From assembly GCA_038231275.1 (NCBI GenBank), contig JBBRLQ010000005.1, positions 224,001-288,000 on the forward strand: 64,000 nt of DNA, written 5' to 3'. Below, piece by piece: positions 8,938 through 35,521 of this stretch. Below the pieces are notes generated by a model, which saw only the letters and a program-made list of their open reading frames with translations, was not told the DNA's origin and did not search any database. Positions within the stretch are counted from its first letter, which is position 1; each line of letters begins with the position of its first letter. The stretch comes from Polyangiales bacterium (GTDB lineage Bacteria; Myxococcota_A; Polyangia; Polyangiales; Polyangiaceae). A program made the position numbers and the translations under genes.

Positions 8938-9126
8938 TTGGAAGTTCTCCTTGAAGTGCGCGGACGGATGACGCGAGGGCGGTGGGCGGGTTCGCACATC
9001 GCTCCGTGTCACTGCTGCACGCAAGGAGTCACCCCACAGGGACCGCGAGCGCCAGCGACCTCACCGCTGCAGTTCGCGGACCAGAAGGCCACGGTCGCGC
9101 TCCGCCCATCCCCCTCGGACCGACGT

Positions 9127-18168: not shown

Positions 18169-18240
18169 GCCAGAGACTCTATAGTGCAGCCCTGCGCGAG
18201 CCCAGATCGTCTGGCGCGGTCGTGCGTAAGAGTAGGCACC

Positions 18241-19504: not shown

Positions 19505-20734
19505 TCACACGTCGACGGAGCCCGCCGAAGTGTGCTCCCAGTACGTGAGCCCGCCGTCCGCCAGCGACGTGACGAAGCGCACCGCGCCGTCTTGCGACAC
19601 GACCACCGCGACGGCCTCGGGGATGGCGGTGCAGAGCCGATAGGCCGAGCGGTGCCGCGTCCCAACGCCGTCGATCGACTCCCTCTCGCGCTGGACGCCC
19701 TCCAGATCGAGCGCGCGGGCGACGTCGTGGACCTCGGGCAAACGTCCGGCGATCTCGGCGCCGAAACCGAAGAGCTCGAACCGCTTCGTCAGGACGACCG
19801 CGCCGTCGACGTCGGCGAGCGCGGCGATCAGGTGCCCCAGCTCGAACACCGCCTCGTCGAGCGCGGCGAGACCCGACGCTTCCTCCGCGCCGGCGAGGCC
19901 GCGCAGAACCGCGAGGATGAGGGTGCGGTAGCGCCGCCGCGGCTCCTCGTCGCAGAACGCATACTTCAGCGCGAGGTACGGCGTGCTCGACGCGATGTCC
20001 TCCGGGAGAAACAGGACGGTGCCGCCGTGGTGCGCGTCGCGCATCGTCGTGATCACGCGCTTGATCATCTGCTGCGACACGCGTTTCACGACGGCGGCGT
20101 CGAGGGGGCGCCACGGCGTGGTGGCGTCGCGCTGCGCCTGCTCGTGCGCGTCGAAGATCTCTTTGCGGACGACGGCGAAGCGGGCAGGGAGCCACTTGGA
20201 CTCGAAGACGTCGAGACCAGGCCCCGTCACTACGCCGCGCCGTAGCTCCGCGAGCGTGACGTCACCCTTTGCGATCGCGAGCCGCCCGGGTCCATGCACG
20301 CGGATGACGAGCGCGTCCTCCGGCACGTCGGGGCCGCCGCCCGGTGCTCCGCGCGCGCTCTGGAGCCAGCGCGTCCCCGATTGCATCACACCCCAGAGCT
20401 GGAGCCGCCCGCCACGCGACTCGACGCCGATCAGCGCGCGGTGGAACTTGGTCGCGGGGGAGAGCCGCCGTAGCTCATCGGCGGTGCACGGCCGCGGTTC
20501 TGCGAAGCGGAGGCGATGCAGGCCGGTCGGCGGGTGCCCGTTCTCGGGGAGCCGGCTGGGCGGGCCGTACAAGAGGCGGAATGAGACCGGGCGCAGCTCG
20601 TCGAAGAGGAGGCTCGCCTGGTACGCCGTGGAAATCAGCGCCTCCAGCGCGGCCGGCGAGGGGAGGCAGGAGGTGTCCTCGCCCCATACGTTCCGCACAT
20701 AGCTCGCGAGCTGCGTCGGGTACGCGTGGAGCAT
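19505..20734 (-). CDS. Diadenylate-cyclase (DisA_N)-like protein with N-terminal putative sensor domain
   Basis: HHGGTVLF, DVDGAVVL (DGA), GTRHRSA (RHR), VVSQDG; no TM or HhH domain. Confidence 0.85.
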   Translation of the reverse strand: MLHAYPTQLASYVRNVWGEDTSCLPSPAALEALISTAYQASLLFDELRPVSFRLLYGPPSRLPENGHPPTGLHRLRFAEPRPCTADELRRLSPATKFHRALIGVESRGGRLQLWGVMQSGTRWLQSARGAPGGGPDVPEDALVIRVHGPGRLAIAKGDVTLAELRRGVVTGPGLDVFESKWLPARFAVVRKEIFDAHEQAQRDATTPWRPLDAAVVKRVSQQMIKRVITTMRDAHHGGTVLFLPEDIASSTPYLALKYAFCDEEPRRRYRTLILAVLRGLAGAEEASGLAALDEAVFELGHLIAALADVDGAVVLTKRFELFGFGAEIAGRLPEVHDVARALDLEGVQRERESIDGVGTRHRSAYRLCTAIPEAVAVVVSQDGAVRFVTSLADGGLTYWEHTSAGSVDV

Positions 20735-20867
20735 TCCCCGACTATACAGGCCCGCGCCTTGACCCGGGCCGGAGCCGACGCTAAGGAAGTTTCAGTAGTT
20801 TTTGAAGCTTTCGTGAGATGTGACGACGCACGGCGTCATGGCGCCGAACGCCCGAGGGGAGAGGTTC

Positions 20868-21962
20868 ATGGTGTCCAGCTCGATCGAAGTGCGCAGCGAC
20901 GCGCGGGAGCCCGCGCACGACGACGTGCTCGCCCGTCTGGCCGACGTCTGCAGGGTCCGCGGCGTGGACGGCACGCCCTCGCGCCTCGGCTCCTTGCTGG
21001 GCTGCGTCGAGGACGACATGCGCGTCATCGACGCCGCGCTGGAGGTCGTGAGCGAAGGCGGAACACGCGAGCTGCCGGTCGAGAAGAGCGTGCGTCACCT
21101 GCTGCGCCTCAAGGGCAAGCGCCTCCGCCCGATGTGCGTCGCGCTCGCCGCCCGCGTCGGCACCGGCTTCAGCGACGCCGCGCGCGAGATCGCCGTCTCG
21201 GCCGAGCTCGTCCACGCCGCGACGCTCCTCCACGACGACGTCGTCGATCTCGGCGACAAGCGCCGCGGTGAGCCGACGGCGCGAATGGTCTACGGCAACG
21301 CCGCGTCGATCTTCGGCGGCGACTGGCTCCTCGTGGAGGCGCTGCGCAGGATCCACCGCGCAGGTGTGCCGGGCGTCATGGACGGCGTGCTCGCGGTCCT
21401 CACCGAGATGCTCGGCGCCGAGTCGCTTCAGCTCGCGTGCCGTGGACGCTTCGATCCGAGCATGGGCGTGTACATGCGCATCGTCGAGGGCAAGACGGCC
21501 TCGCTCTTCCGCTGGGCGCTCGCCGCTGGTGGTCGCGCCGGTGGGCTCGACGACGACGCGTGTCGCGCGCTCTCGACGTACGGCGACAAGCTCGGGGTCG
21601 CGTTCCAGATCGTCGACGATCTCCTCGACGTCGCGGGCGATGCCGGCGCGCTCGGAAAGAGCGTGTACTCGGACCTGCGCGAAGGGAAGACGACGTATCC
21701 GCTCCTCATCGCCCTCGAGCGTGAACCGCAGCTGATGCCGATCGTCCGCGCCGCGTGCGAGGCCGAGGACGACGCGCACCTGGCGTCGGCCGGCGCCGCG
21801 GTGGCCGAGGCGCTGGCGAGGACGGGCGCGATCGACGAAGCCCGCGCGTTCGCGGCGCGCCTCTCGACGCAGGCGGTCGGCAGCTTGTCCGGCCTGCGGC
21901 GGTGCATCGCGCGGGAAGCGCTCGAGCACACCGCGATCGAGCTCGTCGGGAGGGGCAAGTGA
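20868..21962 (+). CDS. Long-chain polyprenyl diphosphate synthase (IspB/HepT-like)
   Basis: GKRLRP, FARM ATLLHDDVVD, RRG, KTA, SARM FQIVDDLLD, DLREGKTTYP; GAGAGG before ATG 20868. Confidence 0.92.
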   Translation: MVSSSIEVRSDAREPAHDDVLARLADVCRVRGVDGTPSRLGSLLGCVEDDMRVIDAALEVVSEGGTRELPVEKSVRHLLRLKGKRLRPMCVALAARVGTGFSDAAREIAVSAELVHAATLLHDDVVDLGDKRRGEPTARMVYGNAASIFGGDWLLVEALRRIHRAGVPGVMDGVLAVLTEMLGAESLQLACRGRFDPSMGVYMRIVEGKTASLFRWALAAGGRAGGLDDDACRALSTYGDKLGVAFQIVDDLLDVAGDAGALGKSVYSDLREGKTTYPLLIALEREPQLMPIVRAACEAEDDAHLASAGAAVAEALARTGAIDEARAFAARLSTQAVGSLSGLRRCIAREALEHTAIELVGRGK

Positions 21963-22687
21963 ACGCGCCGCAGGCCAAGGGCGGGAGCGGCGAGATGTTC
22001 GACGCGATCGCGGACAAGTACGATCTCGTCAACCGCGTCATCTCGCTCGGCATCGACCAGAGCTGGCGGCGCAAGGCCGTGCGCGCCATGAACCTTGCGG
22101 ACGCCGCCCGCGCGATCGATCTGGCCACCGGCACCGGGGATCTCGCGATCTTGACCGCGAAGACGCATCCTCAGGTCCACGTCCTCGGCCTCGATCCGTC
22201 GACCAAGATGCTCGCGGTCGGCGAGGTCAAGGTGAAGGCGGCGGAGCTCGAGGGGCGCGTCGTCCTGAAGGTCGGCGACGCGCAGGCGATCGACGCGCCG
22301 GACGCGAGCGTCGACGCGACGAGCATCTCGTTCGGGATCCGTAACGTGCCCGATCGCGCCAAGGCCCTCCGCGAGATGGCGCGCGTCGTGCGGCCGGGCG
22401 GCCGCGTCGTGATCCTCGAGCTCGCCGAGCCGACGACGCCGGTCCTCGGGTCGCTCGCGCGCTGGCACATCCACACGCTCGTCCCCGCGATCGGCGCCGC
22501 GCTATCCGGCGCCCGCGAGTACCGGTACCTGGAGAAGTCGATCGCCGCGTTCCCGCCGCGCGAGGAGTTCGCGGCGCTGATGGAGAGCTCTGGCCTTCGC
22601 GTCCTCGCGGCCGAGCCGCTCACGTTCGGGGTCGCGACGCTCTACGTTGCGACCCCGGCGACGGAGGAGCCCGATGCTCGCAGCTGA
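21959..22687 (+). CDS. menG: Demethylmenaquinone methyltransferase
   Basis: MFDAIADKYDLVN, DLATGTGD, FGIRNV, RVVRPGG, YRYL..SI; GTGA overlap. Confidence 0.93.
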   Translation: MNAPQAKGGSGEMFDAIADKYDLVNRVISLGIDQSWRRKAVRAMNLADAARAIDLATGTGDLAILTAKTHPQVHVLGLDPSTKMLAVGEVKVKAAELEGRVVLKVGDAQAIDAPDASVDATSISFGIRNVPDRAKALREMARVVRPGGRVVILELAEPTTPVLGSLARWHIHTLVPAIGAALSGAREYRYLEKSIAAFPPREEFAALMESSGLRVLAAEPLTFGVATLYVATPATEEPDARS

Positions 22688-23969
22688 CGCCATCTGCGTG
22701 CTCACCCGGCCCGCGCCGCGCGTGCGGCCGGAGGCGTTCCTGGGCCTGCCGCTCGAAGGCGAGCGCATGCTTTGGGACGCCGGCGAGGGGTGGTCGTTCG
22801 CGGGTCGCGGCGCGGCCGCGCGCGTGGAGGCGTGGGGCGAGCGGCGCTTCGAGCAGACGCGTGACGCCGCGGCGCGCGTGTTCGCGTCGCTCCTCGACCT
22901 CGACCAAGGGGTCGCGCCGAAGATGCGCATGTTCGGCGGACTCTCGTTCCAGCCGCAAGGCGTCGCGCCGCCGCCGTGGACCGGCTTCGCCGACGCGAGC
23001 TTCGTGCTCCCGCGCTGGACGTACTGCGTGTCGAAGGACGCGGCGTTCGTGCGCGTCGCCGTGCCCGCCGGGGAGCTGCGCGGCGCCGAGGACCGGCTCG
23101 CGACGGTGCTCCATGCGCTCGAAAAGGCGCCGGAGCGCGTCACGATGCCGGCCCCGAACGGCGCGCGCCTCGTCGAGATGGAGCGCACGGTCTGGGATGA
23201 GCTCGTCGAGGGCGCGCTGCGATCGATCCGTAGCCGCGAGCTCGAGAAGGTCGTCACGGCGCGTCGGAGCGCGGTCACGCTGAGCACGCCGATTGATCTT
23301 CCCGCGGCGCTCGGCCGCATGCGCCGCCTCGAGCCGACGTGCACGCGCTTCGCCGTCGAGCGCGAGGGCGGAGTCTTCCTCGGCGCGACGCCGGAGCGCC
23401 TCGCCGTCTTGCGCGGCCTGCGCGTGGAGGTCGACGCGCTCGCCGGCTCCATCCCGCGTCGCGACGAAGGAGAGGAGCGCGAGCTCATCGCCAGCGACAA
23501 AGATCAACGCGAGCACGCGCTCGTCGTCGACGGGATCCGCGCGGCGCTGGCGTCGTTCTGCGATCACGTCGACACGCCGTACCCGCCGGGCGTCCGCACG
23601 CTGCGCGCGGTCCACCACCTGTGGACGCCGATCACCGCATCGCTGCGCGCGCCGACGCACGTGCTCGATCTCGTCGCCGCCGTGCACCCGACCCCCGCGG
23701 TATGTGGCCTCCCGCGCGAGCGCGCGCGCGGATGGATCGCGGAGCACGAGCCGACGCCGCGCGGATGGTACGCGTCGCCGGTCGGCTGGTTCGACGACGC
23801 GGGCGAGGGGCAGTTTTCGGTCGCCATTCGCTCGGCGCTCGTGAAGGGGACCGACGCGTGGCTCTTCGCCGGAGCCGGCATCGTCGAGGGCTCCGATCCC
23901 GGCCTCGAGTACAAGGAGACAGGGGTCAAGCAGACGACGATGCTCGCGACCTTGGGGGTCGCGCCGTGA
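22674..23969 (+). CDS. menF: Isochorismate synthase
   Basis: KVVTAR, GATPERL, ALAGS, KDQREH, HPTPAVCG, RGWY, AGAGIV. Confidence 0.92.
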   Translation: MLAADAICVLTRPAPRVRPEAFLGLPLEGERMLWDAGEGWSFAGRGAAARVEAWGERRFEQTRDAAARVFASLLDLDQGVAPKMRMFGGLSFQPQGVAPPPWTGFADASFVLPRWTYCVSKDAAFVRVAVPAGELRGAEDRLATVLHALEKAPERVTMPAPNGARLVEMERTVWDELVEGALRSIRSRELEKVVTARRSAVTLSTPIDLPAALGRMRRLEPTCTRFAVEREGGVFLGATPERLAVLRGLRVEVDALAGSIPRRDEGEERELIASDKDQREHALVVDGIRAALASFCDHVDTPYPPGVRTLRAVHHLWTPITASLRAPTHVLDLVAAVHPTPAVCGLPRERARGWIAEHEPTPRGWYASPVGWFDDAGEGQFSVAIRSALVKGTDAWLFAGAGIVEGSDPGLEYKETGVKQTTMLATLGVAP

Positions 23970-25741
23970 CCTCGAACCTCCACGTCGCGTGGGGGCGCCT
24001 CTTCATGCGCGCACTCGCGACGTCGGGGGTGAAGCACCTCGTCGTGAGCCCCGGCTCGCGTTCGACGCCGCTCGTCCTCGCCGCCGCGCGCGAGGAGCGG
24101 CTCGTCTGCCACGTGATCGTCGACGAGCGCAGCGCCGCGTTCTTCGCGCTCGGGCAAGCGCGCGCGACCGGAGAGCCGAGCGCGCTCCTCTGCACGTCGG
24201 GCACCGCGGCGGCCCATTATTTCCCGGCGATCATCGAAGCGAGCGCGAGCTTCACGCCGCTCGTCGTCGTGACCGCCGATCGCCCTTGGGAGGCGTACGA
24301 CGCCGCGTCGCCGCAGACGATCGATCAGATCAAGCTGTATGGCGGGTACGTTCGGCAGTTCGCGGAGCTCGGACTTCCGGATCCCTCGGCGGCGGCGCTG
24401 CGGGCCGTCGTGCGCGTCGCCGCGCAGGCGGTCGAGAAGGCACGCGGTCCGACACCCGGCCCCGTCCACGTGAACGCGCGCTTTCGAAAGCCGCTCGAGC
24501 CGGTCACCGGCCTCGCGCGTGAGGCGTGGGAGGACGAGTGGGAGCGCCTCATGGCCGCAGGCGCCCCGCGTACGGCAACGCCGCGCCTCTCTCCGGACAC
24601 CGACCTCGTCGCCGAGGTGACGGCGGCGTGCAAGCGCTCGACGCGCGGGCTCATCGTGTGCGGGCCATCTGGCCTCTCGCCGTCGAGCTCCCCGCGGAGC
24701 GGCAACGTCGCCGCGCTCCAACGTGCCACCGGCTTCCCGATCCTCGCCGAGGCCACGAGCCAACACCTCTTCGGCGTCGAGAGCCGGAGCGTCCGCGTTT
24801 TCGGCGCGTTCGACGCGATCCTGCGGGATCCCGCGTGGCGCGCGCGCTTGGCGGCTGACGTCATCCTCGAGATCGGCGCGCCGCCCACCTCGAGCGCGTA
24901 CGCGACGTTCCTCACCGAGCACCCGCCCACGGTCCGCGCCGTGATCGCCGCGCACGGGTGGAACGATCCGACGGGGGGCGCAACGCACATCCTTCGCGGC
25001 GACGAGAACGAACTGTGCAACGCAATCGACCCGCACCTGGGGTGGGCCGAGGCGAAGTCGAAGAACGAACTCTTGGCGCCGCTCGCGCAGGCGAGCCAGG
25101 CCGTATACGCGCTCGTTCAGGAGGAGCTCGATTCGGGCGTGCTGACGGAGGGTCGCGTCGCACACGATCTCGTCGACGCGCTCGATGACGGCGGGACGCT
25201 CATCGTCTCGAACAGCAATCCCGTGCGCGACGTGGACCTGTATGCGCCTCCGCGATCCACGTCGCCCGCCCGGTTGCGCGTGCTCCATCAGCGCGGCGCC
25301 AGCGGGATCGACGGCCTCCTCTCCGGTGCCGCGGGCACGCGCAGCGTCGCGACCGGCCGCCTCGCGCTCCTCACCGGTGACCTCGCGTTCCTGCACGACG
25401 TCGGCGGCCTCGCTGCGGTGCGCGGCGTGAAGGGGCCGCTGGCGATCGTGGTCGTGCAGAACGGCGGTGGCCGGATCTTCGAGCAGCTCCCCATCGCGCG
25501 CGCCACTGACGCCGCGACGCTCGAGCGCTTCTTCGTTACCCCCGAACCCCTCGCCCTTGAACACGCCACCGCCGCGTTCGGGATCGCGCACCGCGCCGCG
25601 CGCACGCCCGACGAGCTCTCCGCCGCGCTCGCCGAAGCCATGGCCGGAGAGGCGCCGCTCGTGATCGAGGCGATCGTCGAGCCCAACGGAGCCGCCCGGC
25701 GTGCGCGCGTGTGGAACGGTTGGCAAGCGAGGGTCTCGTGA
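23966..25741 (+). CDS. menD: SEPHCHC synthase
   Basis: SPGSRSTPL, DERSAAFFALG, CTSGTA, TADRP, GPVHVN, RGASGIDG, GDLAFLHD, NGGGRIF. Confidence 0.96.
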   Translation: MTSNLHVAWGRLFMRALATSGVKHLVVSPGSRSTPLVLAAAREERLVCHVIVDERSAAFFALGQARATGEPSALLCTSGTAAAHYFPAIIEASASFTPLVVVTADRPWEAYDAASPQTIDQIKLYGGYVRQFAELGLPDPSAAALRAVVRVAAQAVEKARGPTPGPVHVNARFRKPLEPVTGLAREAWEDEWERLMAAGAPRTATPRLSPDTDLVAEVTAACKRSTRGLIVCGPSGLSPSSSPRSGNVAALQRATGFPILAEATSQHLFGVESRSVRVFGAFDAILRDPAWRARLAADVILEIGAPPTSSAYATFLTEHPPTVRAVIAAHGWNDPTGGATHILRGDENELCNAIDPHLGWAEAKSKNELLAPLAQASQAVYALVQEELDSGVLTEGRVAHDLVDALDDGGTLIVSNSNPVRDVDLYAPPRSTSPARLRVLHQRGASGIDGLLSGAAGTRSVATGRLALLTGDLAFLHDVGGLAAVRGVKGPLAIVVVQNGGGRIFEQLPIARATDAATLERFFVTPEPLALEHATAAFGIAHRAARTPDELSAALAEAMAGEAPLVIEAIVEPNGAARRARVWNGWQARVS

Positions 25742-26535
25742 TCCCGACCATCCTCCTCCACGGATTTCTCGGCGCGCCGGCGGCGTGGGACGAGGTCGTG
25801 CGCTTCCTCGAGCCGCGCGGCGAGGCGCTGGCCGTCGCGTTGCCTGGCCACGGTGTGCGCCCGTGGATCCCTGGAGTCGGAGAGATCGCGAACGGCGACC
25901 GCTCGCTCCGCGGCCGCGCATCGTGCACGTCCTTCGAGGAGGCCGTCGACGCCTTCGCGGCCCGCTTGCCCGAGCGTGCCCATGTGGTCGGTTACTCGAT
26001 GGGTGCGCGCGTGGCGCTCGGCATCGCCGCGAGGCATCCCGCGCGGGTCGCGTCGCTCGTCGCGGTCGGCCTGCACCCGGGCCTCGCGGACGACACCGAA
26101 CGGCGCGCGCGCCGCGCATGGGACGAGCAGCTGGCGCGCGATCTGGAGACGAAGGACCTCGCATCCTTCGTGGACGCGTGGGAGAAGCTGCCGATCTGGG
26201 ACACGCAGCGCGCGCTCCCCGAGGCCGTGCGGGCGCGTCGTCGTGACGAGCGGCTCGCGCAAGTCCCCGCCGCGCTCGCGTGGGCGCAGCGGACCCTCGG
26301 CCTCGGCGCGATGCCGGATCTCTGGAACGCGCTCGCCGCGTCGGAGGTGCCGGTTCACCTCGTGACCGGCGCGCGCGACGACAAGTTCACCGCCCTCGCT
26401 CGGCTGGCGCTCTCACGCGCCCCGTCGTGCCTGCACACCGCCGTGGGCGGCGCCGGTCATGACGTCGGCCTCGAAGCGCCACGCGCGCTGGCCTCGATCC
26501 TTCGCACGGTACAAACAGGAGCACGCGAGCCATGA
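25738..26535 (+). CDS. menH: SHCHC synthase (alpha/beta hydrolase)
   Basis: [31 protein letters not shown]; operon position. Confidence 0.88.
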
Positions 26536-27395
26536 AGAGCACGAAGATGGAGTGGAGCAAGGCCAAGGGCTACGAGGACATCGTCTACGAGAAGGTGCTC
26601 CTCCCCCGCGACGACGATCCGGCGACGCCCCTCGGCGGCATCGCGAAGATCACGATCAACCGCCCCGAGGTCCGGAACGCCTTCCGCCCGCGCACGGTGG
26701 TGGAGATGAGCCGCGCGATGAACGACGCGCGCGACGACTCCGACGTCGGCGTCGTCATCCTGACCGGCGCCGGCGACAAGGCCTTTTGCTCCGGCGGCGA
26801 TCAGCGGGTCCGCGGCGAGGGCGGCTACGTCGGCGAGGACGGCGTCGCGCGCCTCAACGTGCTCGATCTCCAGCGCCAGATTCGCACACTCCCCAAGCCG
26901 GTCGTCGCGATGGTCGCCGGCTACGCGATCGGCGGCGGCCACGTCCTCCACATGATGTGCGATCTCACGATCGCCGCCGACAACGCGCGCTTCGGCCAGA
27001 CCGGTCCCAAGGTCGGCAGCTTCGACGGCGGCTACGGCGCCTCCTACATGGCGCGCATCGTCGGCCAGAAAAAGGCGCGCGAGATCTGGTTTTTGTGCCG
27101 CCAGTACGACGCCAAGCAAGCGCTCGACATGGGGCTCGTGAACCACGTCGTACCGCTCGCCGATCTCGAGGACGAGACGGTGAAGTGGTGCAAAGAGATG
27201 CTCTACAACAGCCCCCTCGCGCTCCGCTGCATCAAAGCGTCGCTCAACGCCGACTGCGACGGTCAGGCCGGCCTCCAGGAGCTCGCCGGCAACGCGACGC
27301 TCCTCTACTACATGACCGAGGAGGGCAAAGAGGGGAAGAAGGCGTTCCTCGAGAAGCGGAAGCCCAATTTCGGCCGGTTCAAGCGGCTGCCGTGA
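26532..27395 (+). CDS. menB: 1,4-dihydroxy-2-naphthoyl-CoA synthase
   Basis: [42 protein letters not shown]. Confidence 0.98.
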
Positions 27396-28321
27396 GCGCG
27401 CGCCCCGCGGCGAGCATGGAGGCGTCGCCGCGCGCGGCGCCTGGATCGCTGCGTGCGTGGATCCTCGCGATCCGGCCGGCGACGCTCACCGTGGGCCTCT
27501 CGCCGGTGCTCGTCGGGGCCGCGGTCGCGTCGCGCGAAGGTGCGACGCGCGTAGGGGCGATCGTCGCGGCGCTGCTCGGGGCGATTTTTCTCCAAATCGG
27601 ATCGAACCTCGCGAACGACGTCTTCGATCACGAGAAGGGGGCGGACGGGCCCGATCGTCTTGGGCCGCTCCGCGTCACGCAGGCGGGGCTCCTCTCGCCG
27701 TCGGCGGTGCGCGCCGGGATGGTCGTGGCCTTCGCGCTCGCGATGGTGGTGGGCGTCTACCTCACGAACGTCGCCGGGTGGCCGATCGTCGCGATCGGCC
27801 TCGCCTCGATCGCGTCGGCGATCGCGTACACCGGCGGGCCGTTTCCGCTCGGCTATCACGGGCTCGGTGACGTGTTCGTGTTCGTGTTCTTCGGGCTCGT
27901 CGCGGTGTGTGGGACCGCCTTCGTGGCGACCGGGGGCGTGCCGCTCTTGGCGTGGCTCGCGGCGGTACCGGTCGGGTGCCTCGCGACGTGCGTGCTCGTC
28001 GTGAACAACGTCCGCGATCGCGAGACCGATGTCCGCGTCGGCAAGCGCACGCTCGCAGTGAGGTTCGGGCGCGGCTTCGGCGTGGGCGAGTACGTCGTCC
28101 TCGCGGTCGCCGCGTACGCCGTCCCGATCGCGCTCGTCGTGGCGGGGATGGGTGGGCCGTTCGTGCTTTTGCCGCTCCTCACGGCGCCGATCGCGGTGGG
28201 CCTCGCGCGCACGGTCGCGCGGTCGACCGATGGACCGACGTTGAACCGCGCGCTCGCCTCGACGGCACGACTCCTCCTCTTCCATAGCGTCCTCTTCGCC
28301 GCCGGCCTCGCGATGCGATGA
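27392..28321 (+). CDS. menA: DHNA prenyltransferase
   Basis: [46 protein letters not shown]. Confidence 0.95.
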
Positions 28322-29385
28322 ACGCCGCGTTCGAGCTCGTCTACGGCGAGATCGCGCTCGCGTCGCCGATCACGACGTCGCGCGGTACCTGGACGCATCG
28401 GCGCGGCGTGATCCTTCGACTTCGCGACGCGGAAGGTCGGGTCGGCCACGGCGAGGCCACGCCGCTCCCCGGCTACTCGCCCGACGGCGTCGACGATTGC
28501 GCGCGTGCGCTCGAACGGGTGGCGCGGGAGGTCGATCCGAACGCGCTTCATGTCGCGTCGCGCTTCGACGAGGCCCTCGCGGGAGTGCCGTGCGCGCGGT
28601 TCGCGCTCGAGACCGCGCTCGTCGATCTCGCATCGCAGCGCGCGGGCGTCAGCGTCGCGTCGGTGCTCGCGGGCCTCGCGGGAGGTCGCGCGCTGGACGA
28701 GGTGGCGCTGTCCGCGCTGGTCGATCTCGCGTCGCCCGAGATGGAGACGCGCGCAATGGACCTGATTCAGCGCGGCGTGACGACGGTGAAGGCAAAGATC
28801 GGCACGCGGGCGCGCGACATCGAGCTCGCGGCCCTCGCGCGCCTGCGCCACGCGGTCGGTCCGGCCGTGCGCCTGCGCCTCGACGCGAACGGCGCCTTCG
28901 ACGTGCACGGCGCGGCCACGCTTCTTCGGGACGTCGCGCCCTTCGCGCCCGAGCTCGTGGAAGAGCCGACGTCGGGCGAAGCCCTGCTCGCCCTCGCCGC
29001 GAGCCCGGTGCCGTGGGGCGCCGACGAATCTTTGCAAGATGCACGCATCGCCGATCGGCTTCTTTCGTCGGCGTGCGCGGCGTTCGTCGTCAAGCCGCAG
29101 CTCTACGGTCTCCACGCCGGGCGCGATCTTGCGATGCGCGCGCTCGCGGCGGGGAAGGGTGTGGTGGTCACGCACCTCTTCGACGGACCGGTCGCCCTCG
29201 CGGCCGCGTGCGAGCTCGCGCTCTCCCTCGCCCTCCCCCTCGCGCGCCCGCCGCTCGCATGCGGCCTCGACCACCACGCGTCGCTGGGACTCTTCGGCGA
29301 AGCCGATGTGCCCCAGCTCGTCCATGCGGACCGCGGACGCGTCGTCTCGCACGCGCCGGGGCTCGGCGTCGCGCTCTGCAAGTAG
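28318..29385 (+). CDS. menC: o-succinylbenzoate synthase
   Basis: [36 protein letters not shown] enolase-superfamily motifs. Confidence 0.88.
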
Positions 29386-29419
29386 CTCGACCTCGCCGAG
29401 CCTTCGGGCTATTTGAGCG

Positions 29420-30814
29420 GTGATGCGCCTCCGCGCCCTCGCCGCCGCGCGCGACGCCGACGCCCGCACTGCCCTTGTCCTTCCCGGCGGCGAACGCGTT
29501 TCGTACGCGAAGCTCGGCGAGCGGGTCGGGCGCGTCACCGAGGTCCTCCGTCAGAGCGGCGTGGTCCCGCGCGCGCGCGTGGCGATGTGGGGGACGACGC
29601 GTGAGCCGACGCTCCTCGCGATCCTCGCGACGCTGGAGCTCGGCGCCACGCTGGTGCCGGTCCATCCGCGCCTCGTCGCGACCGAAGCCGAGACGCTCAT
29701 CCGCGCGTCGACGCCGGTGCGCACGTTCCTCGAGGACGATCTCGACGAGCTCGCCGATCGCGCGTCCCACGGCCCCATCGCGCCCGCGCAGCCCCCGCCC
29801 TCGCCGAACGATCCGCTCGCCGTCCTCTTCACGTCGGGCTCCACCGGGCGCCCCAAGGGGGCCATCCTCTCGCGCGCGGCGTTCCTCGCCAGCGCCGACG
29901 CGAGCGCGAAGAACCTCGGGTGGCGCGACGACGACGCCTGGCTCCTCGCGATGCCGCTCTGCCACGTCGGCGGCCTGTCGATCGTCACGCGTTGCCTCGC
30001 CGCGCGCCGCACGATCGTCCTGCACGAGCGCTTCGACGCGGACGCCACCCTCGCGGCGATCGAGGACGGCGTCACGCTCGTCTCGGTCGTGCCCACGATG
30101 TTGAAACGCCTCCTCGAGGCCGACACGAAGAACGTCCTCGCACGAACGCGCGCGCTCCTCGTCGGCGGCGCGGCGTGCCCACCTTCGCTTCTCACGGAGT
30201 GCGCGTCGCGCGGCGTCCTCGCGCTCACGACGTACGGGCTCACCGAGGCGTGTTCCCAGGTTTCGTCGCAGGCGCCGCGCGATCCCCGGAGCGCCGAGCC
30301 GGGAAGCGGCAGACCGCTCGACGGGACCGAGCTAGCGATCGTCGACGGCCATATCCACGTGCGCGGCGCGACGATGATGGACGGGTACCTCGGCGAAGCG
30401 CCGCTCGCGCCGGGCGCATGGTTCGACACCGGCGATCTCGGCGAGCTCGACGACGAGGGGCGTCTCCACGTGCACACGCGCCGGGTCGATCTCGTGGTGA
30501 CCGGTGGCGAGAACGTCTACCCCGCCGAGATTGAAGCCGCGCTCGAGTGCTGTCCAGGCGTGCGGCGCGCGTTCGTGTTCGGCGTCCCCAACGCCGAGTG
30601 GGGCGAGCTCGTGGCGTGCGCGATCGAGCGCGATCCAGCCCGCGATGTGGCCGAGTCGGAAATTTACACGTCGATGACGCGCGTCTTGGCGACCCACAAG
30701 AGGCCGCGCCGCGTCGCGTTCGTCGATGCGCTGCCCACCCTCGGCGAGAAGCTCGATCGCGCGCGCGGCAAGGAAAATTACGCGGGATCCGTGCGCCCGT
30801 GGACAAAGGCGTGA
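29420..30814 (+). CDS. menE: o-succinylbenzoate-CoA ligase
   Basis: FTSGSTGRPKG, PLCHVGGL, SVVPT, TYGLTE, TGDLG, GGENVYP. Confidence 0.9.
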   Translation: MMRLRALAAARDADARTALVLPGGERVSYAKLGERVGRVTEVLRQSGVVPRARVAMWGTTREPTLLAILATLELGATLVPVHPRLVATEAETLIRASTPVRTFLEDDLDELADRASHGPIAPAQPPPSPNDPLAVLFTSGSTGRPKGAILSRAAFLASADASAKNLGWRDDDAWLLAMPLCHVGGLSIVTRCLAARRTIVLHERFDADATLAAIEDGVTLVSVVPTMLKRLLEADTKNVLARTRALLVGGAACPPSLLTECASRGVLALTTYGLTEACSQVSSQAPRDPRSAEPGSGRPLDGTELAIVDGHIHVRGATMMDGYLGEAPLAPGAWFDTGDLGELDDEGRLHVHTRRVDLVVTGGENVYPAEIEAALECCPGVRRAFVFGVPNAEWGELVACAIERDPARDVAESEIYTSMTRVLATHKRPRRVAFVDALPTLGEKLDRARGKENYAGSVRPWTKA

Positions 30815-30938
30815 TTGCCGAAGCCGACGCGACGCGGTGGCGCGCGCGACAATCTGCCCGGGCGATCGCCTCACGAAACGCACTCGCCCGATATCCAGGC
30901 GCGTGCGGACGGGCACGGATCTGGCACCATGGGAGCAC

Positions 30939-33179
30939 ATGAGCGCCGCCTTTGCCGACTGGCCGAAACCGGGGCCCATCGACCTGACGCTTCACGATCC
31001 CCCGCACGGGTCGTCGTCCACCGAGTGGTGGTACGTCAACACGCACTTCGAAGCCGAGGACGGACGGCCCTTCTCGCTCTTCGCGGCGTTCTTCCGGATC
31101 CGCAAGCCGAACGGCGCGCCCGGCGCGAAGCCCGAGTACGCGTACTCGGTGACGTGGGCGCTCACCGACGTGACGACGAGCGCGTACTACCCCGACTCGC
31201 GCGTCGACAAGAGCGCGCCCAAGATGGGCATCGAGCGCATCAAGAGCGGCAAAGGCTCGCGCGACCCGCGTCTCAACCGCGCCATGACCGAGGTGCTCGA
31301 GCGGGGCAAGATACCGGGCCCCGACCGCGTCTTCGACGGCGACATCTTCGTCGCGGAGGGCCGGCTCGAGCTCGACTACGCGGGTGCGCGCTTCGAGAAG
31401 CAGGCCGACGGCACCTACCGCCTCCAGGTCGCGAACGATCGCGTGCGCGCGGCGGCCGACATCACGTTCACCCTGAAAAAGACGCCGATCCGCCACGGCG
31501 ACGACGGCGTCGTGAAGGGCCACGCCGGCGAGGACATGTTCTACTACTTCGTGCCGCGCTGCGACGTCGCAGGCACAGTGACGGTCCGCGGCGAGACGCT
31601 GCGCGTCGCGAAGGGCAACGGCTGGTACGACCACGAGTTCGGCGGCCCGACGAAGGAGCAAGCCGAGCGCGCGAAGAAGGAGAAGCCGGTCGACGTCGCG
31701 TGGAACTGGATCGGCGCGCAGCTCGAGGGCGGCACCGAGGTCAGCGCCTACTCGCTCGTGCGCGCGGAGGACGGCAAGGTGCTGTGGCAGTGGGCGGTCG
31801 TCATCGATCCGTCCGGCGCGGCGCGCTCGCACCACGGCGTCATGCTCACGCCCGGCCGCACGTGGCGGAGCACGCGCACGTTCCACGACTACCCGACGGC
31901 GTGGAAGCTCGACGTCCCCGAGGCGGAGCTCTCCCTCGAGGTGTCGGCCGCGTTCGATGACCAGGAGCTCATCACCGTCATCTCGAAGCCCGCGTTCTGG
32001 GAAGGACGCGTCGCGGTGACCGGCACGCTCGGCGGCAAGGCGGTCACCGGCCTCGGCTACCTCGAGCGCAGCGGCTTCGAGCCGATCAAAGATCTCGACG
32101 ACTACTTCGGCGCCGTCGGCGAAGAGGTGCGAAAGTCCGTCCGCGCGGTCCTGCCGCTCGAGCCGACCCACGACGAGGCCCGCGCCCTCATCGCGTCCAA
32201 GGATCGCGAGCACTACATGGATGGCGTGAGCCTCCCCCAGATCTCGCGCGCCCTCCTCGCGCCGATTCGCGAGATCACCGATCGCGGCGGGAAGTCCTGG
32301 CGATCGTACGCAGCGCTCGCGTGCTGCGACGTCGTCAACGGCGACTCGCGAAAATTCGTCCAGTGGCTGGCGATGCCGGAGCTGCTCCACGTCGGCTCGC
32401 TCATCGTCGACGACGTGCAGGATCACTCGACGGTGCGGCGTGGCAAGCCGACGTGCCACGTCATCTACGGCGAGCCGATCGCCATCAACGCCGGCACCGC
32501 CGCGTATTTTCTCGCGCAGAAGCTCCTCTTTTCGAACGAGATCTCGGACGCCAAGAAGCTGAAGCTCTACGATCTCTACTTCGAGAGCATGCGCGCCGGG
32601 CACGCCGGTCAGGCCATGGACCTCGACGGACCCGGTGATCTCCTCCCCGACGTGGTCGCGAGCGGCGACGCGCGGGCGCTCGAATCCCGCATCCTCGCGA
32701 CGCACCGCCTGAAGACCGCAGCGCCCGCCGGATCGCTTGCGCGCATGGGCGCGATCGCAGGCGGTGGGACCGACGAGCAGGTCGAGGCAGTCGGGCGCTT
32801 CTTCGAGGCGCTGGGCCTCGCGTTCCAGATCGTGGACGACGTCTTGAACCTCCGTGGCTTCAAGGGGAACCTGAAGTCGGCGGGCGAGGACATCGCGAAT
32901 GGCACGATCACGCTGCCGGTCGCGAAGGCGCTCGGACGCCTCGGCGAGGCCGATCGCGCCTGGGTGTGGAAGACGATGCAGGGCAAACCCAAGGAGCCGG
33001 CGGTCGTCGCGTCGGTGATCGCGAAGCTCGAGGCGTGCGGCGCGATCGAGGCCTGCGCCGACGAAGCGCGCGCGCTGGTGGAGGACGCGTGGGCCAAGGC
33101 GGCGCCGCTCCTCGACGACTCGATCTCGAAGGTCATGCTGCGCGCGTTCGGCTGGTACGTCCTCGAACGCCACTACTGA
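30939..33179 (+). CDS. Fusion: CrtC/AttH lipocalin-like domain + trans-isoprenyl diphosphate synthase (GGPPS-like)
   Basis: N half TEWWY, GWYDHEFG, WNW, YPTAW, QEL, FWEG, GYLE; C half GGKSWR, GSLIVDDVQD..RRG, HAGQAMDL, KT, FQIVDDVLN, EDIANG.ITLP; one uninterrupted frame. Confidence 0.9.
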   Translation: MSAAFADWPKPGPIDLTLHDPPHGSSSTEWWYVNTHFEAEDGRPFSLFAAFFRIRKPNGAPGAKPEYAYSVTWALTDVTTSAYYPDSRVDKSAPKMGIERIKSGKGSRDPRLNRAMTEVLERGKIPGPDRVFDGDIFVAEGRLELDYAGARFEKQADGTYRLQVANDRVRAAADITFTLKKTPIRHGDDGVVKGHAGEDMFYYFVPRCDVAGTVTVRGETLRVAKGNGWYDHEFGGPTKEQAERAKKEKPVDVAWNWIGAQLEGGTEVSAYSLVRAEDGKVLWQWAVVIDPSGAARSHHGVMLTPGRTWRSTRTFHDYPTAWKLDVPEAELSLEVSAAFDDQELITVISKPAFWEGRVAVTGTLGGKAVTGLGYLERSGFEPIKDLDDYFGAVGEEVRKSVRAVLPLEPTHDEARALIASKDREHYMDGVSLPQISRALLAPIREITDRGGKSWRSYAALACCDVVNGDSRKFVQWLAMPELLHVGSLIVDDVQDHSTVRRGKPTCHVIYGEPIAINAGTAAYFLAQKLLFSNEISDAKKLKLYDLYFESMRAGHAGQAMDLDGPGDLLPDVVASGDARALESRILATHRLKTAAPAGSLARMGAIAGGGTDEQVEAVGRFFEALGLAFQIVDDVLNLRGFKGNLKSAGEDIANGTITLPVAKALGRLGEADRAWVWKTMQGKPKEPAVVASVIAKLEACGAIEACADEARALVEDAWAKAAPLLDDSISKVMLRAFGWYVLERHY

Positions 33180-33212
33180 CCGCGACCACGACGTCACGGT
33201 CGCCAAAACGGC

Positions 33213-34283
33213 TCATTTTTCCCCGGCGGGAGCGCTCAGGGGCGGGAGCATGCCCGGGATGTCGGCGTCGGGATCGTCGGCGTGGGACGACCAGCCGCCG
33301 ATCACGCTCGCGCCGACGAGGCCCACGAATGCGACGGGGAACCAGCGTCGCATGCGCTGGTCGAGGCGGAGGGCGGCCTCGGCGCGGCCGTGCGTCACCG
33401 CGTGAGACTCCCACAAGACCATGCCGAGCGCCGCCGCCGTCGCGAGGTAGCAGACGATGTACACACGGTCGGCGAGCGTGAGGTACGCGACGCGCGGAAG
33501 CGTGTCGGCTTGCGTCAGCTGGAACGCGATGATGGCGAGCATGCACGTGATGCCCACCGACGCGGCGCTGCCCAGATCGTCGGGCTTGATCCAGAAGAGG
33601 CCGTACGCGAGCGCGACGATGAGGAACAGCGGGAGGAAGTAGCGCGTGAGATAGAACTGCCAGAGGCGCGCGACGGGGAAGGTGACGACGAGGAGGCGCG
33701 GCCCCTTCTTGCCGGGAAACGCGCTGAACGTGGAGCGTTTGATCTCGGCGGAAGGGTAGTCGAGGACGCGCCACCCGCCGAGCTCGCGGTAGGCGTCGAT
33801 CGCGACGACGTTCGGCCAGAGCGTGGGCTGCCACGTCGCTTGTTCGTCGGAGAGCGCGCGCTCTTCGAGGAGGAGCCTCAAGCCCTGGGTGTCGAACGGG
33901 AAGCGCCGGAGGCGGAACCAGTTGGAGTAGGTGGCGCTGAAGCGGCGCTCGCGGTAGCAGTCGTCGCCCACGCGGACCGTCTCGTCCACCGCGGCGGACG
34001 TGTCCCCGGAGGCGTTGCGGACGTTGAGCTCCGGCCGCAGCCCGCCGGCCGGCCATCGCGTCACGAGCGACACCTCGCCGCTCCACGACGCGCTGCGCTC
34101 GCTCACTTCGCGGATGTGCGTGATGCGCAGGCCCGCGCGTATGAGCTCGGGGAGCTTCACGGTGACCTTCGCCGGGTCGGTGTTGCAACACTCCTCGGGG
34201 CCGGCGCAATCGCCGGCGCGCGCCTCGCGGCCTGCCACCAACAGCGAGAGGAGCGCGACGAGGACGGCGAGGACGGCCTTCAT
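33213..34283 (-). CDS. Prokaryotic pentameric ligand-gated ion channel (Pro-loop)
   Basis: Signal peptide; LRRFPFDTQ loop; M1 YLTRYFLPLFLIV...FW; M2; LPRVAYLTLAD; M3; M4 RRWFP. Confidence 0.9.
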   Translation of the reverse strand: MKAVLAVLVALLSLLVAGREARAGDCAGPEECCNTDPAKVTVKLPELIRAGLRITHIREVSERSASWSGEVSLVTRWPAGGLRPELNVRNASGDTSAAVDETVRVGDDCYRERRFSATYSNWFRLRRFPFDTQGLRLLLEERALSDEQATWQPTLWPNVVAIDAYRELGGWRVLDYPSAEIKRSTFSAFPGKKGPRLLVVTFPVARLWQFYLTRYFLPLFLIVALAYGLFWIKPDDLGSAASVGITCMLAIIAFQLTQADTLPRVAYLTLADRVYIVCYLATAAALGMVLWESHAVTHGRAEAALRLDQRMRRWFPVAFVGLVGASVIGGWSSHADDPDADIPGMLPPLSAPAGEK

Positions 34284-34312
34284 GGAGCCGAGCGTACGCG
34301 CCTTTTCGCCGG

Positions 34313-35521
34313 TCAGAGAGCCCTGGTCGCGCCGCTCGGGAGCACTTCTTCGAACGCCTCGCCCAAGGCGCCCGGCTTGGTCACGTGGAGCCACGCGCCG
34401 CCCGTGGCGTCCGCGCCGACGCTGAGGCCGGTGTCGACGAGGAAGAGGAGGCCGCCGTATTTCTGGAACATCTGATCGGACGCGCGGGTCGTCGCGTCCG
34501 CGAAGCCGACGTTCCCCGGCTGGTGCCCCATGACGAGGTGCTTCACACCGAGCGACTGCGTCCACGTCGTGAGCAGCGTGGTCGCGTTGCCCGTCGCGTC
34601 CCACCACTGCGGCCCGGATCCCGAGAGGCGCGCCTCGAGCATCGAGTCGACCGCGGAGAGCACCGGCGCACCGAAGCCGGCGCCGTCGATGCCGATTCGC
34701 AGATCGGACGACATCTGCGCGACCGTCTTGCCGCCGGTCTTGCCACCATGGACGAAGAACCAACCGGCCACCTTCGCGGCCATCGGCAAGCCTCGAATGA
34801 ACGCGCCGACGTCGTTGAGGCCGGCAGCGGTCGCCTGCGGAGTGAAGCCGAGGCTCGCGAGCTGCGGATCGATCCCATCCGTGCCGGAGGCCTTGCTGTT
34901 GAGCGGATCAGCGAGGAACTCTGCCTCGTGGTTCCCCATCGTGACGACCACGCCGCCGCCCGCCGACGCCGCCGCCGACGCGAGCGCGTTCGAGAGGCGT
35001 ACGACATCCACCGCGTCGGGCCCCTTGTCGATGAGATCGCCGACGATGACGACGTACGCCGTGCCTCCCGTCCACGTCACCGTAGTGGGCGCCGCGGGGA
35101 CGGCTGCGATGAGCTTCGCGGCGACGAGGAGCTTGGTGAACGCGGCGTAGTCGCCGTGCACGTCGGAGAGCACCCAGAGCTCGCTCGCGGAGGCGACCTC
35201 CACGACGGGCGGGAATTTGCTCCAGTCGCGCGCGCAGCCGCTGCACGGCGCGGCGTCGGACGTCGCGTCGCCCGTGCCGCCTTCGAACCCTCCGCTGCTC
35301 GCGCCGCTGCTGCTGGCCCCGCTGCTGCTGGCCCCGCTGCTTCCGCTGCCGCTCGCGCCGCTGCTGCCGCTGCTGCCGCTGGCTCCGCTGCTCGCGCCGC
35401 TGCTGGTGGCGCCGCTGCTGCTGCTCGTCCCAGCGGCGTCGCTGCCTCCACCGCCACACGCGCCGATGAGCGCGATGGCCATGAGGAGGGAGAGAACTCG
35501 CGGAGCGTGGAACGAGCGCAT
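34313..35521 (-). CDS. Lipoprotein calcineurin-like metallophosphoesterase (Shewanella-like phosphatase type)
   Basis: IGA-C lipobox; GASS linker; DVHGD, GDLIDKG, GNHE, FVHGG, MGHQP, VDTG. Confidence 0.9.
   Translation of the reverse strand: MRSFHAPRVLSLLMAIALIGACGGGGSDAAGTSSSSGATSSGASSGASGSSGSSGASGSGSSGASSSGASSSGASSGGFEGGTGDATSDAAPCSGCARDWSKFPPVVEVASASELWVLSDVHGDYAAFTKLLVAAKLIAAVPAAPTTVTWTGGTAYVVIVGDLIDKGPDAVDVVRLSNALASAAASAGGGVVVTMGNHEAEFLADPLNSKASGTDGIDPQLASLGFTPQATAAGLNDVGAFIRGLPMAAKVAGWFFVHGGKTGGKTVAQMSSDLRIGIDGAGFGAPVLSAVDSMLEARLSGSGPQWWDATGNATTLLTTWTQSLGVKHLVMGHQPGNVGFADATTRASDQMFQKYGGLLFLVDTGLSVGADATGGAWLHVTKPGALGEAFEEVLPSGATRAL

Follow-up and report, generated by a model that had tools for sequence, protein, structure and literature searches.

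A bacterial gene joining an AttH/CrtC-like barrel to a geranylgeranyl diphosphate synthase-like domain: a candidate synthase–hydratase found beside menaquinone genes in one genus

Introduction

The gene considered here lies in a 64,000-nucleotide stretch of DNA from a Polyangiales bacterium (GenBank assembly GCA_038231275.1, contig JBBRLQ010000005.1, positions 224,001 to 288,000), referred to below as the window. It encodes a CrtC/AttH-like N-terminal domain joined to a C-terminal trans-prenyl diphosphate synthase and follows a cluster for the biosynthesis of menaquinone (vitamin K2). Both halves represent well-known enzyme families and the fusion is common, yet a literature search that left paywalled journals and supplements outside its scope found no paper on a CrtC/AttH–prenyl synthase fusion. 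We give about an even chance to the reading that the protein is a bifunctional geranylgeranyl diphosphate (GGPP) synthase–hydratase that starts an undescribed hydroxylated terpenoid lipid.

Several hydratases are described for the fold of the N-terminal domain. CrtC, the carotenoid 1,2-hydratase (EC 4.2.1.131; PF07143) of Rubrivivax gelatinosus and Thiocapsa roseopersicina, is cofactor-free and adds water to the terminal isoprene double bond to give a tertiary alcohol. By the same account (PMC4717167), C20 geranylgeraniol is a further substrate and activity requires His239, Trp241, Tyr266 and Asp268 (Rubrivivax numbering). Tertiary alcohols are likewise formed by two other members, as set out in bioRxiv 10.1101/2025.10.20.683597. 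One is Hgs, the archaeal AttH-like hydroxy-glycerol dialkyl glycerol tetraether (GDGT) synthase, whose family hydrates double bonds of membrane isoprenoid chains; the other is the kievitone hydratase of the fungus Nectria haematococca (7A0Q/7A0T), which hydrates the prenyl group of an isoflavonoid. For AttH itself the structure paper proposes only "a role in lipid metabolism" (PMC2954199).

The C-terminal half invites comparison with the type III GGPP synthases, among them yeast Bts1 (2DH4) and human GGPS1 (2Q80). For these, PMC9729869 gives as criterion a first motif free of insertion, with small residues at positions −4 and −5. It also reports that Tyr107, Phe108 and His139 end elongation in the type III enzyme, mutants of which give products up to C70.

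Two-domain terpenoid enzymes with a C-terminal domain of the GGPP synthase type are described from fungi, where fusicoccadiene synthase (PaFS), variediene synthase and PvCPS make a chain and then modify it through an N-terminal domain, in the manner of an assembly line. That N-terminal domain is an α-helical class I (or class II) cyclase, and the domains are joined by a flexible linker.

Results

One frame with two domains

The forward-strand frame at 30939-33179 encodes 746 aa with a single terminal stop (protein P0001). Profile searches place three Pfam families in it: CrtC at residues 28-235 (78.9 bits against a cut-off of 22.5), Lipocalin_9 at 253-379 (83.7 against 26.2) and polyprenyl_synt (PF00348) at 438-696 (162 against 27). 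The barrel half contains the motifs EWWY at residue 29, WYDHEFG at 229, WNW at 255, YPTAW at 318, FWEG at 353 and GYLE at 373, and the synthase half contains GSLIVDDVQD at 486, HAGQAMDL at 555 and DDVLN at 633. The gene is a genuine two-enzyme fusion, with the following features.

30939..33179, + strand: fusion gene, AttH/CrtC-like double-lipocalin domain plus trans-prenyl diphosphate synthase, 746 aa (translation, Pfam, relatives, model)
30939..32084, + strand: N-terminal barrel domain, residues 1-382 (Pfam CrtC and Lipocalin_9, structural matches)
31215..31301, + strand: predicted helical insert, residues ~93-121 (helices 93-102 and 110-121), followed by PxPDR at 126-130 (AlphaFold model)
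31623..31643, + strand: W229-Y-D231-H-E-F-G235 motif, D231 being the proposed general acid (alignment to AttH and kievitone hydratase)
32085..33176, + strand: C-terminal trans-prenyl diphosphate synthase domain, residues 383-746 (Pfam polyprenyl_synt, structural match)
32409..32423, + strand: first Asp-rich motif, D491-D-V-Q-D495 (counts in 73 relatives)
32505..32510, + strand: Y523-F524, aligned with the yeast GGPP synthase floor residues Tyr107/Phe108 (alignment to 2dh4_A)
32601..32603, + strand: H555, aligned with the yeast GGPP synthase floor residue His139 (alignment to 2dh4_A; H in 72/73)
32835..32849, + strand: second Asp-rich motif, D633-D-V-L-N637, of the DDxxN type (counts in 73 relatives)

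All 17 NCBIfam families listed for the protein score below their cut-offs, the GGPP, farnesyl diphosphate (FPP) and long-chain equivalogs included. The highest is NF041169 (135.9 against 450) and GGPP_syn reaches 100.8 against 500, so the NCBI naming models leave the protein without an assignment. An alternative, longer open reading frame from the ATG at 30726 overlaps menE; relatives start at the Met of 30939 (P0002, also 746 aa, at 100% coverage), and GGGAG sits 3 nt 5' of that ATG. Inspection by eye found no hydrophobic signal-like stretch at the N-terminus. Composition (GC 0.689, GC3 0.925) is like that of the neighbouring genes and gives no sign of recent transfer.

The barrel half and the predicted structure

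The nearest solved structure to the N-terminal domain is the AttH-like protein NE1406 (2ICH), found by sequence (phmmer E 1.5e-23) and by structure (Foldseek E 3e-22). Superposition of model residues 5-382 on 2ich_B gives Z 36.0 and a root-mean-square deviation (rmsd) of 3.2 over 310 of 323 residues. Kievitone hydratase is a weak sequence match (7A0Q, E 1.8e-6, 16-19% identity) and a close structural one (7a0q_A, Z 32.2, rmsd 3.1, 300 residues aligned, model 10-384), and shares with the fusion the motif W-Y-D-[HR]-[EQ]-[FW]-G as well as the fold; the fungal enzyme differs in being stand-alone and in its prenylated isoflavonoid substrate. These matches support, at the level of the model, assignment of the N-domain to the AttH/CrtC/kievitone-hydratase fold. 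The domain also resembles CrtC, scoring above the PF07143 cut-off and placing an acidic residue in the central conserved motif. It departs from CrtC in being fused to a prenyl synthase, in belonging to a genome without a phytoene synthase match, and in having a sequence nearer AttH than anything named CrtC.

D231 aligns with the Asp of "wldrew" in AttH and of "wydrqw" in kievitone hydratase. Conservation was counted in an alignment of 73 full-length relatives at 26-88% identity, in which 52 members have Asp at position 231, 19 have Glu and 2 have Asn. Four other polar residues of the barrel are similarly retained: S311 (73/73), E343 (72/73), Q342 (65/73) and E376 (66/73).

The AlphaFold model of the whole fusion, built on the 73-row alignment, has a mean predicted local distance difference test (pLDDT) value of 94.1 and a predicted template modelling (pTM) score of 0.92, and its N-terminal secondary structure is that of a β-barrel and not of an α-helical terpene cyclase. 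AttH-like proteins and Hgs are stand-alone, Hgs acting on finished tetraether lipids and not on a nascent prenyl diphosphate, and the 2ICH alignment omits residues 56-146 of the fusion, the helical insert included; P128, just beyond that insert, is at least 90% conserved. Several stand-alone synthase structures (1wy0, 3oyr, 4jyx) align with the model from residue ~109-111 onward, which suggests that the modelled insert helix may occupy the site of their first helix and so pack on the synthase. The pTM score and the alignment of this helix together favour a single integrated unit over two loosely tethered domains. The predicted rigid body contrasts with the fungal chimeric synthases and their flexible linker, as the calycin-type β-barrel contrasts with their helical cyclase domain.

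Two further searches bear on the barrel. A 25-phosphosteroid lyase (9fzn/9g4c) was returned by Foldseek at TMt 0.52 and rmsd 9, is absent from the 50 best matches by Z, and nothing was drawn from it. A tblastn search of plasmids with the barrel found AttH-like genes, some automatically named "carotenoid 1,2-hydratase", and further fusions, with no proven CrtC among them.

The synthase half

The catalytic residues of a trans-prenyl diphosphate synthase are kept throughout the family. In the first Asp-rich motif D491, D492 and D495 are present in 72, 73 and 72 of the 73 relatives, and R500 and R501, in the RRG at 500-502, in all of them, as are Q558 and K592. D633 and D634 of the second motif are each found in 70, and position 637 is N in 46 and D in 25. 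DDVQD, RRG, Q558, K592 and DDVLN rank as invariant or at least 95% conserved. No two-residue insertion interrupts the first motif, which is preceded by the small residues G486 and S487 at −5 and −4. Y523, F524 and H555, each at least 90% conserved, pair with Tyr107, Phe108 and His139 in the 2dh4_A alignment, the chain numbering of which was taken as +5 relative to native, from chain length and residue identities. Since these floor residues match the yeast type III enzyme and are kept in the family, C20 is the best estimate of product length that the sequence allows.

Structural comparison points the same way. The synthase half superposes on the Geoglobus GGPP synthase 5jfq_B with Z 34.9 and rmsd 1.8 over 306 residues (model 386-744). 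For the segment from the first Asp-rich motif (FARM) to HxGQ, the top solved matches come from two groups, fungal chimeric terpene synthases (through their prenyltransferase domains) and the type III GGPP synthases of yeast and human (6v0k, 2dh4, 9q3i, 2q80). The lack of an insertion in DDxxD, the small residues at −4/−5, the DDxxN motif and the Tyr/Phe/His floor are all shared with the type III enzymes. The fusion differs from them in being bacterial and joined to a barrel, and when the entire domain is compared, synthases of plants and archaea and long-chain synthases score equally well or better. The motifs support, as far as sequence goes, an intact eukaryote/archaeal-style (type III-like) GGPP synthase.

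These results largely agree with the initial annotation of this DNA, which had described a 746-aa frame joining a lipocalin-like CrtC/AttH region to a GGPP-synthase-like domain. Translation and three Pfam domains, all far above their cut-offs, bear out the frame, and every motif quoted for it was found in place. The proposed fold is upheld by the AttH and kievitone hydratase matches and by a very confident single-body model with the expected barrel, and the kind of synthase by intact Asp-rich motifs, floor residues and solved matches.

Prenyl metabolism of the genome

The fusion is one of only three trans-prenyl synthases found in the genome, the others being an ispB-like gene and an FPP-synthase-like gene that has Tyr at −5 and a DDxxxxD motif. 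A search for phytoene/squalene synthase (PF00494) gave no match in this 94.14%-complete genome, and the control search matched 8 of 14 reference genomes. With no phytoene synthase match, the substrate of the barrel cannot be a carotenoid, and a carotenoid hydratase role was ruled out here; the same inventory of prenyl genes speaks against a housekeeping enzyme.

Distribution of the family

A word-indexed search returned 1435 proteins at E ≤ 1e-3, and the best 120 of these all carry the three Pfam domains, the named ones being mostly from Myxococcota. An exhaustive search of 50%-identity representatives gave 469 at E ≤ 1e-30, with dozens of full-length fusions down to 29% identity. In the window's phylum the fusion is present in 41 of 300 other sampled genomes (19 of 23 within one family), in the window's own family in 13 of 150 other genomes, and in its genus in both others. 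In species genomes the search confirmed 111 stretches and retained 80 loci, the set behind the locus counts below; among the carriers are Spirosoma, Fibrella, Telluribacter, Chitinophagaceae, the cyanobacterium Iningainema, Acidobacteriota and Verrucomicrobia. Plasmids of Tolypothrix PCC 7601, Tolypothrix PCC 7712 and Streptomyces canus also carry the fusion. Relatives of the synthase half that stand alone, with no barrel gene nearby, occur in two genomes (G182 and G329).

Nine loci (L014, L018, L051, L053, L058, L060, L061, L063, L075) come from metagenome records titled Klebsiella pneumoniae, Enterobacteriaceae, Rhizobium sp., Chitinophaga pinensis, Thermoplasmata archaeon and the like. Most of the fusion proteins of such oddly titled records are placed among Myxococcota-titled rows in the tree, and the taxon labels look unreliable.

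Gene neighbours and larger fused forms

Glycosyltransferases recur beside the fusion. A GT28/monogalactosyldiacylglycerol (MGDG)-synthase-like glycosyltransferase of ~383 aa adjoins it in 10 of the 80 loci (Bacteroidota, Iningainema, a Verrucomicrobia metagenome-assembled genome and others). In seven of the ten an LMF1-like polytopic membrane protein of 765 aa is encoded alongside, in most cases together with an FkbM methyltransferase and two cytochromes P450. An EryCIII-like glycosyltransferase stands beside the fusion in 4 of the 80. In Bacteroidota the GT28-like glycosyltransferase, fusion, LMF1-like, FkbM and two P450 genes form a compact cluster (L060:8759-18116; likewise L031, L032, L055, L065, L078 and L079), which looks like an undescribed terpenoid gene cluster.

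The same partners also occur within one chain. Of 16 longer relatives scanned, three combine sulfotransferase, glycosyltransferase, CrtC, Lipocalin_9 and synthase, two join a glycosyltransferase to the fusion, and two have a PX domain. A 1509-aa protein consisting of sulfotransferase, GT1-type glycosyltransferase and fusion is encoded in a genome of the window's family (G413; L095:7075-11604), flanked by sulfatase and cis-prenyltransferase genes. The 1509-aa form recurs on the Tolypothrix PCC 7601 plasmid NZ_CP064882.1 (L098:9184-13713), between genes for a DevB-type membrane-fusion protein and a DevC/ATPase-type ATP-binding cassette (ABC) exporter. Domain order in the 1509-aa forms is the reverse of the presumed reaction order. 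In P0184 and P0239 the PX (phosphoinositide-binding) domain precedes the barrel and the synthase matches are weak or partial; these two may be eukaryotic, membrane-targeted derivatives.

Export genes are a further recurrent element: the divergent neighbour of the fusion in Streptomyces canus is an ABC transporter pair, and ABC, FtsX/MacB, AcrB and outer-membrane efflux genes recur in Myxococcota loci. The commonest Myxococcota neighbours are two families labelled c4 (23 of 80 loci) and c5 (18 of 80), which, like another family, c7 (16 of 80), have no Pfam or NCBIfam match. c4 is a ~230-aa soluble protein (e.g. L024:4829-5518, + strand), c5 a ~570-aa polytopic membrane protein with a soluble C-terminal part (e.g. 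L009:8058-9920, − strand), and c7 a Cys-rich secreted repeat protein. Atlas comparisons offer leads only, with PMT_2 on 11% of one c5 look-alike cluster and DUF2378 on 17% of one c4 look-alike cluster. The window genome has two c5 paralogues, in unrelated surroundings. Of two other candidate neighbour families, c8 proved to be an Arg/Pro-rich shadow frame and c6 is doubtful.

The menaquinone cluster and its link to the fusion

Upstream of the fusion lies a co-oriented set of menaquinone genes, arranged as follows.

20820..30814, + strand: co-oriented menaquinone cluster, ispB-like, menG, F, D, H, B, A, C, E (profile searches)
20820-21962, + strand: ispB-like long-chain synthase, small A/T at −5/−4 before DDVVD
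21755-22687, + strand: UbiE/MenG
22647-23969, + strand: MenF
about 23990-25741, + strand: MenD
25711-26535, + strand: MenH
26532-27395, + strand: MenB (NF005637, 503 bits against a cut-off of 380)
about 27398-28321, + strand: MenA, 2.6 kb upstream of the fusion
28318-29385, + strand: MenC
29420-30814, + strand: MenE, TGA stop at 30812-30814
30815..30938, + strand: menE–fusion spacer, 124 nt, same strand as both genes
33198..33223, + strand: weak terminator-like hairpin and T-run directly after the fusion stop (consensus scan)
33213-34763, convergent: next gene, weak match to ligand-gated ion channels

A consensus scan of the menE–fusion spacer found no promoter-like and no terminator-like site. 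A 10-nt block in it, GCACGGATCT (30913-30922), is identical in the spacers of all three genomes of the genus, the remainder having diverged; it lies 16 nt from the ATG in the window and in G317 and 6 nt in G379, and may be a regulatory or ribosome-binding element. Small residues at −4/−5 before the first Asp-rich motif are typical of long-chain synthases (PMC9729869).

Elsewhere in the window, the gene immediately before the men cluster, transcribed away from it (19505-20734, − strand), encodes a DACNV sensor protein that weakly matches a DisA-type diadenylate cyclase. Genes further upstream encode a 678-aa serpin-domain protein (17464-19500, + strand) and an ice-binding-like/Big_5 protein (7768-9024, − strand).

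The association with men genes was surveyed by tblastn with the nine men proteins of the window. Men genes adjoin the fusion in 2 of the 80 loci, both from the window's genus; in the other 78, none lies within 10 kb or before the end of the contig. One of the two (L002, fusion 88% identical) has the full men cluster in the same order and the other (L003, fusion 80% identical) has menE at the contig edge; they correspond to the two other genomes of the genus, G317 and G379. The fusion follows menE on the same strand in all three genus genomes, with a gap of 124 nt in the two measured (the window genome, G000, and G317). Synteny between these two breaks directly downstream of the fusion, yet the fusion stays with the men genes.

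Outside the genus the arrangement differs. In three fusion-carrying genomes of the same family (G380, G318, G307) a menG-F-D-H-A-C-E cluster lies on a contig other than that of the fusion, and the men stretches fetched from them contain no match to the fusion, the ispB-like gene or menB. The ispB-like gene and menB are thus joined to the cluster in the window's genus and lacking from it in these three. At E ≤ 1e-20, MenC had no match in two additional genomes (G311, G363). A quick FastTree tree of 79 fusion proteins, midpoint-rooted for drawing only and with several long branches in other parts, unites the three men-linked rows in a clade (support 100) with L004 as sister (99). That clade is nested in one of 12 rows (97), in 6 of whose 9 other members c5 stands beside the fusion. 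Because the men-linked clade nests among relatives with other neighbours, the adjacency is one derived event common to close kin. It is a genus-level arrangement and not evidence of a menaquinone role.

The initial annotation had also placed the gene 124 nt after menE, co-oriented, at the end of a cluster that begins with a long-chain synthase. The gap is confirmed, and the small residues before DDVVD bear out the long-chain assignment. It had further proposed an assembly-line enzyme that would supply a modified quinone tail or else an undescribed terpenoid. The quinone link is not supported: it is confined to one genus, 2 of 80 loci, is lacking in three of three other family genomes examined and belongs to a nested clade, and a survey of homologues finds essentially no men linkage. 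The assembly-line idea fits the single-body model and the larger glycosyltransferase and sulfotransferase fusions, without its connection to men genes, and the undescribed terpenoid is the better fit.

Discussion

A candidate synthase–hydratase

In the scheme that we favour, the fusion would be a cytoplasmic, bifunctional enzyme. Its C-domain would use Mg2+ bound by D491/D492/D495 and D633/D634 to condense isopentenyl diphosphate (IPP) and an allylic primer, and growth would end at C20, where Y523, F524 and H555 would close the bottom of the pocket. The double-lipocalin barrel, rigidly packed on the synthase, would then receive the new chain. There D231 would protonate a trisubstituted double bond, most likely the distal one, water would add to the resulting tertiary cation, and the product would be hydroxy-geranylgeranyl diphosphate or the corresponding alcohol. 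The C20 lipid so hydroxylated would in most lineages be glycosylated, in some sulfated, and exported, the tertiary hydroxyl or the C1 alcohol serving as the handle for sugars and sulfate. The glycosyltransferase partners are most simply explained by a new hydroxyl, for which the C1 alcohol could also serve. In the window's genus the gene would have moved to the 3' end of a consolidated men operon, with which it may be co-transcribed.

Several observations weigh against this scheme. At ~27-29 residues upstream of D231, the positions expected for CrtC His239 and Trp241 are mostly Tyr or Phe. By this approximate mapping the two residues are probably not conserved in the fusion family, and the CrtC catalytic set in the barrel may be incomplete. 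The proposed equivalence of D231 with Asp268 of Rubrivivax CrtC comes from motif only. Product length, the hydration chemistry and its position are all points that we infer, as are the hand-over of substrate between the domains and the fate of the product in the organism. For the partner glycosyltransferases, the sulfotransferase and c4, no homologue could be detected in the window genome, and elsewhere the 64-kb window contains no glycosyltransferase, sulfotransferase, P450 or exporter gene for terpenoid tailoring or export, so that the usual downstream steps are missing here. Finally, the fusion is next to menE in all three genus genomes, with no terminator-like site in the spacer of the window, and a men-related role in this genus is possible.

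Other activities for the barrel

The barrel might instead be a cyclase, acting by class II-like protonation or as a pericyclase, which would make the protein a bacterial prenyltransferase–cyclase chimera releasing a cyclic C20 diphosphate or alcohol. We consider this unlikely. The first step, protonation of a trisubstituted alkene by an acid to give a tertiary cation, would be common to hydration and cyclization, and fungal members of the AttH/CrtC fold catalyse Diels–Alder reactions. The CrtC authors themselves draw an analogy to terpenoid cyclases (PMC4717167). Domain order and the top matches of the FARM segment (6v0k, 9q3i, 9e2h) also mirror the fungal chimeric terpene synthases. Against a cyclase, the characterized relatives CrtC, hydroxy-GDGT synthase and kievitone hydratase are, in the literature cited above, all hydratases forming tertiary alcohols, and the recurrent glycosyltransferase partners again point most simply to a new hydroxyl, although a C1 alcohol could suffice.

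A non-catalytic barrel is a quite unlikely alternative, in which the domain would act as a lipocalin-like cradle that binds the lipid product, shielding it or handing it to the membrane, a glycosyltransferase or an exporter. The nearest solved structure is AttH, not a proven hydratase, and AttH has no assigned reaction (PMC2954199); the substitutions at the approximately mapped His239/Trp241 positions in most members would be in keeping with such a role. The conservation of polar and acidic residues at 26-88% identity (D or E at 231 in 71/73; S311, E343, Q342, E376) exceeds what a greasy pocket needs, and the same Asp is present in kievitone hydratase.

A role in quinone metabolism

A modified menaquinone is a distinctly improbable outcome. 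Here either a hydroxylated or otherwise altered C20 prenyl diphosphate would be attached by MenA to 1,4-dihydroxy-2-naphthoate (DHNA), or the barrel would hydrate the terminal isoprene of menaquinone, giving a hydroxylated and/or short-tailed quinone. The conserved position after menE, its persistence across the synteny break and the terminator-free spacer all speak for such a link. So does the gathering of the ispB-like gene and menB into the genus's cluster, by which prenyl supply and quinone genes have been consolidated. With the usual glycosyltransferase, sulfotransferase and c4 partners undetected in the genome, another consumer would be needed, and MenA, encoded 2.6 kb upstream, uses a prenyl diphosphate. 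Set against this are the 78 of 80 loci without men genes, the separate contigs in three of three other family genomes, and the nesting of the men-linked clade, which makes the linkage one recent event. The cluster, moreover, has its own long-chain synthase, and the fused and neighbouring partners elsewhere point to glycolipids. A compromise, in which a synthase–hydratase that elsewhere starts glycolipids was recruited into the men operon and now yields a hydroxylated respiratory quinone, is equally a long shot.

That the halves work on unrelated substrates, the synthase making GGPP for the cell at large (perhaps to prime the ispB-like enzyme) while the barrel hydrates some other isoprenoid, is most improbable. 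In its favour, the fusion is the sole GGPP-synthase-like gene among the three trans-prenyl synthases found in the genome, and stand-alone synthase relatives without a nearby barrel gene exist. Against it, all of the best 120 relatives and dozens of 50%-identity clusters, some as low as 26-29% identity, keep the fusion intact. The predicted structure is a single rigid body (pTM 0.92), and no known GGPP consumer such as phytoene synthase was found in the genome.

Implications

For the window itself the useful result is a negative one, in that the attractive tie to vitamin K2 synthesis goes back to a single gene arrangement at the level of the genus. Were the synthase–hydratase recruited into the men operon after all, it would yield a hydroxylated quinone of a kind not described in bacteria of the window's phylum. 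The idea of a GGPP synthase–hydratase can be tested in cultured carriers, including Spirosoma panaciterrae, Fibrella arboris, Telluribacter humicola, Iningainema tapete, Tolypothrix PCC 7601 and Streptomyces canus. If it is true, the family would be the entry to unrecognized hydroxylated, often glycosylated or sulfated, exported C20 terpenoid lipids and would provide a cofactor-free route to tertiary terpene alcohols. More broadly, it would represent a new, β-barrel type of assembly-line terpenoid enzyme.

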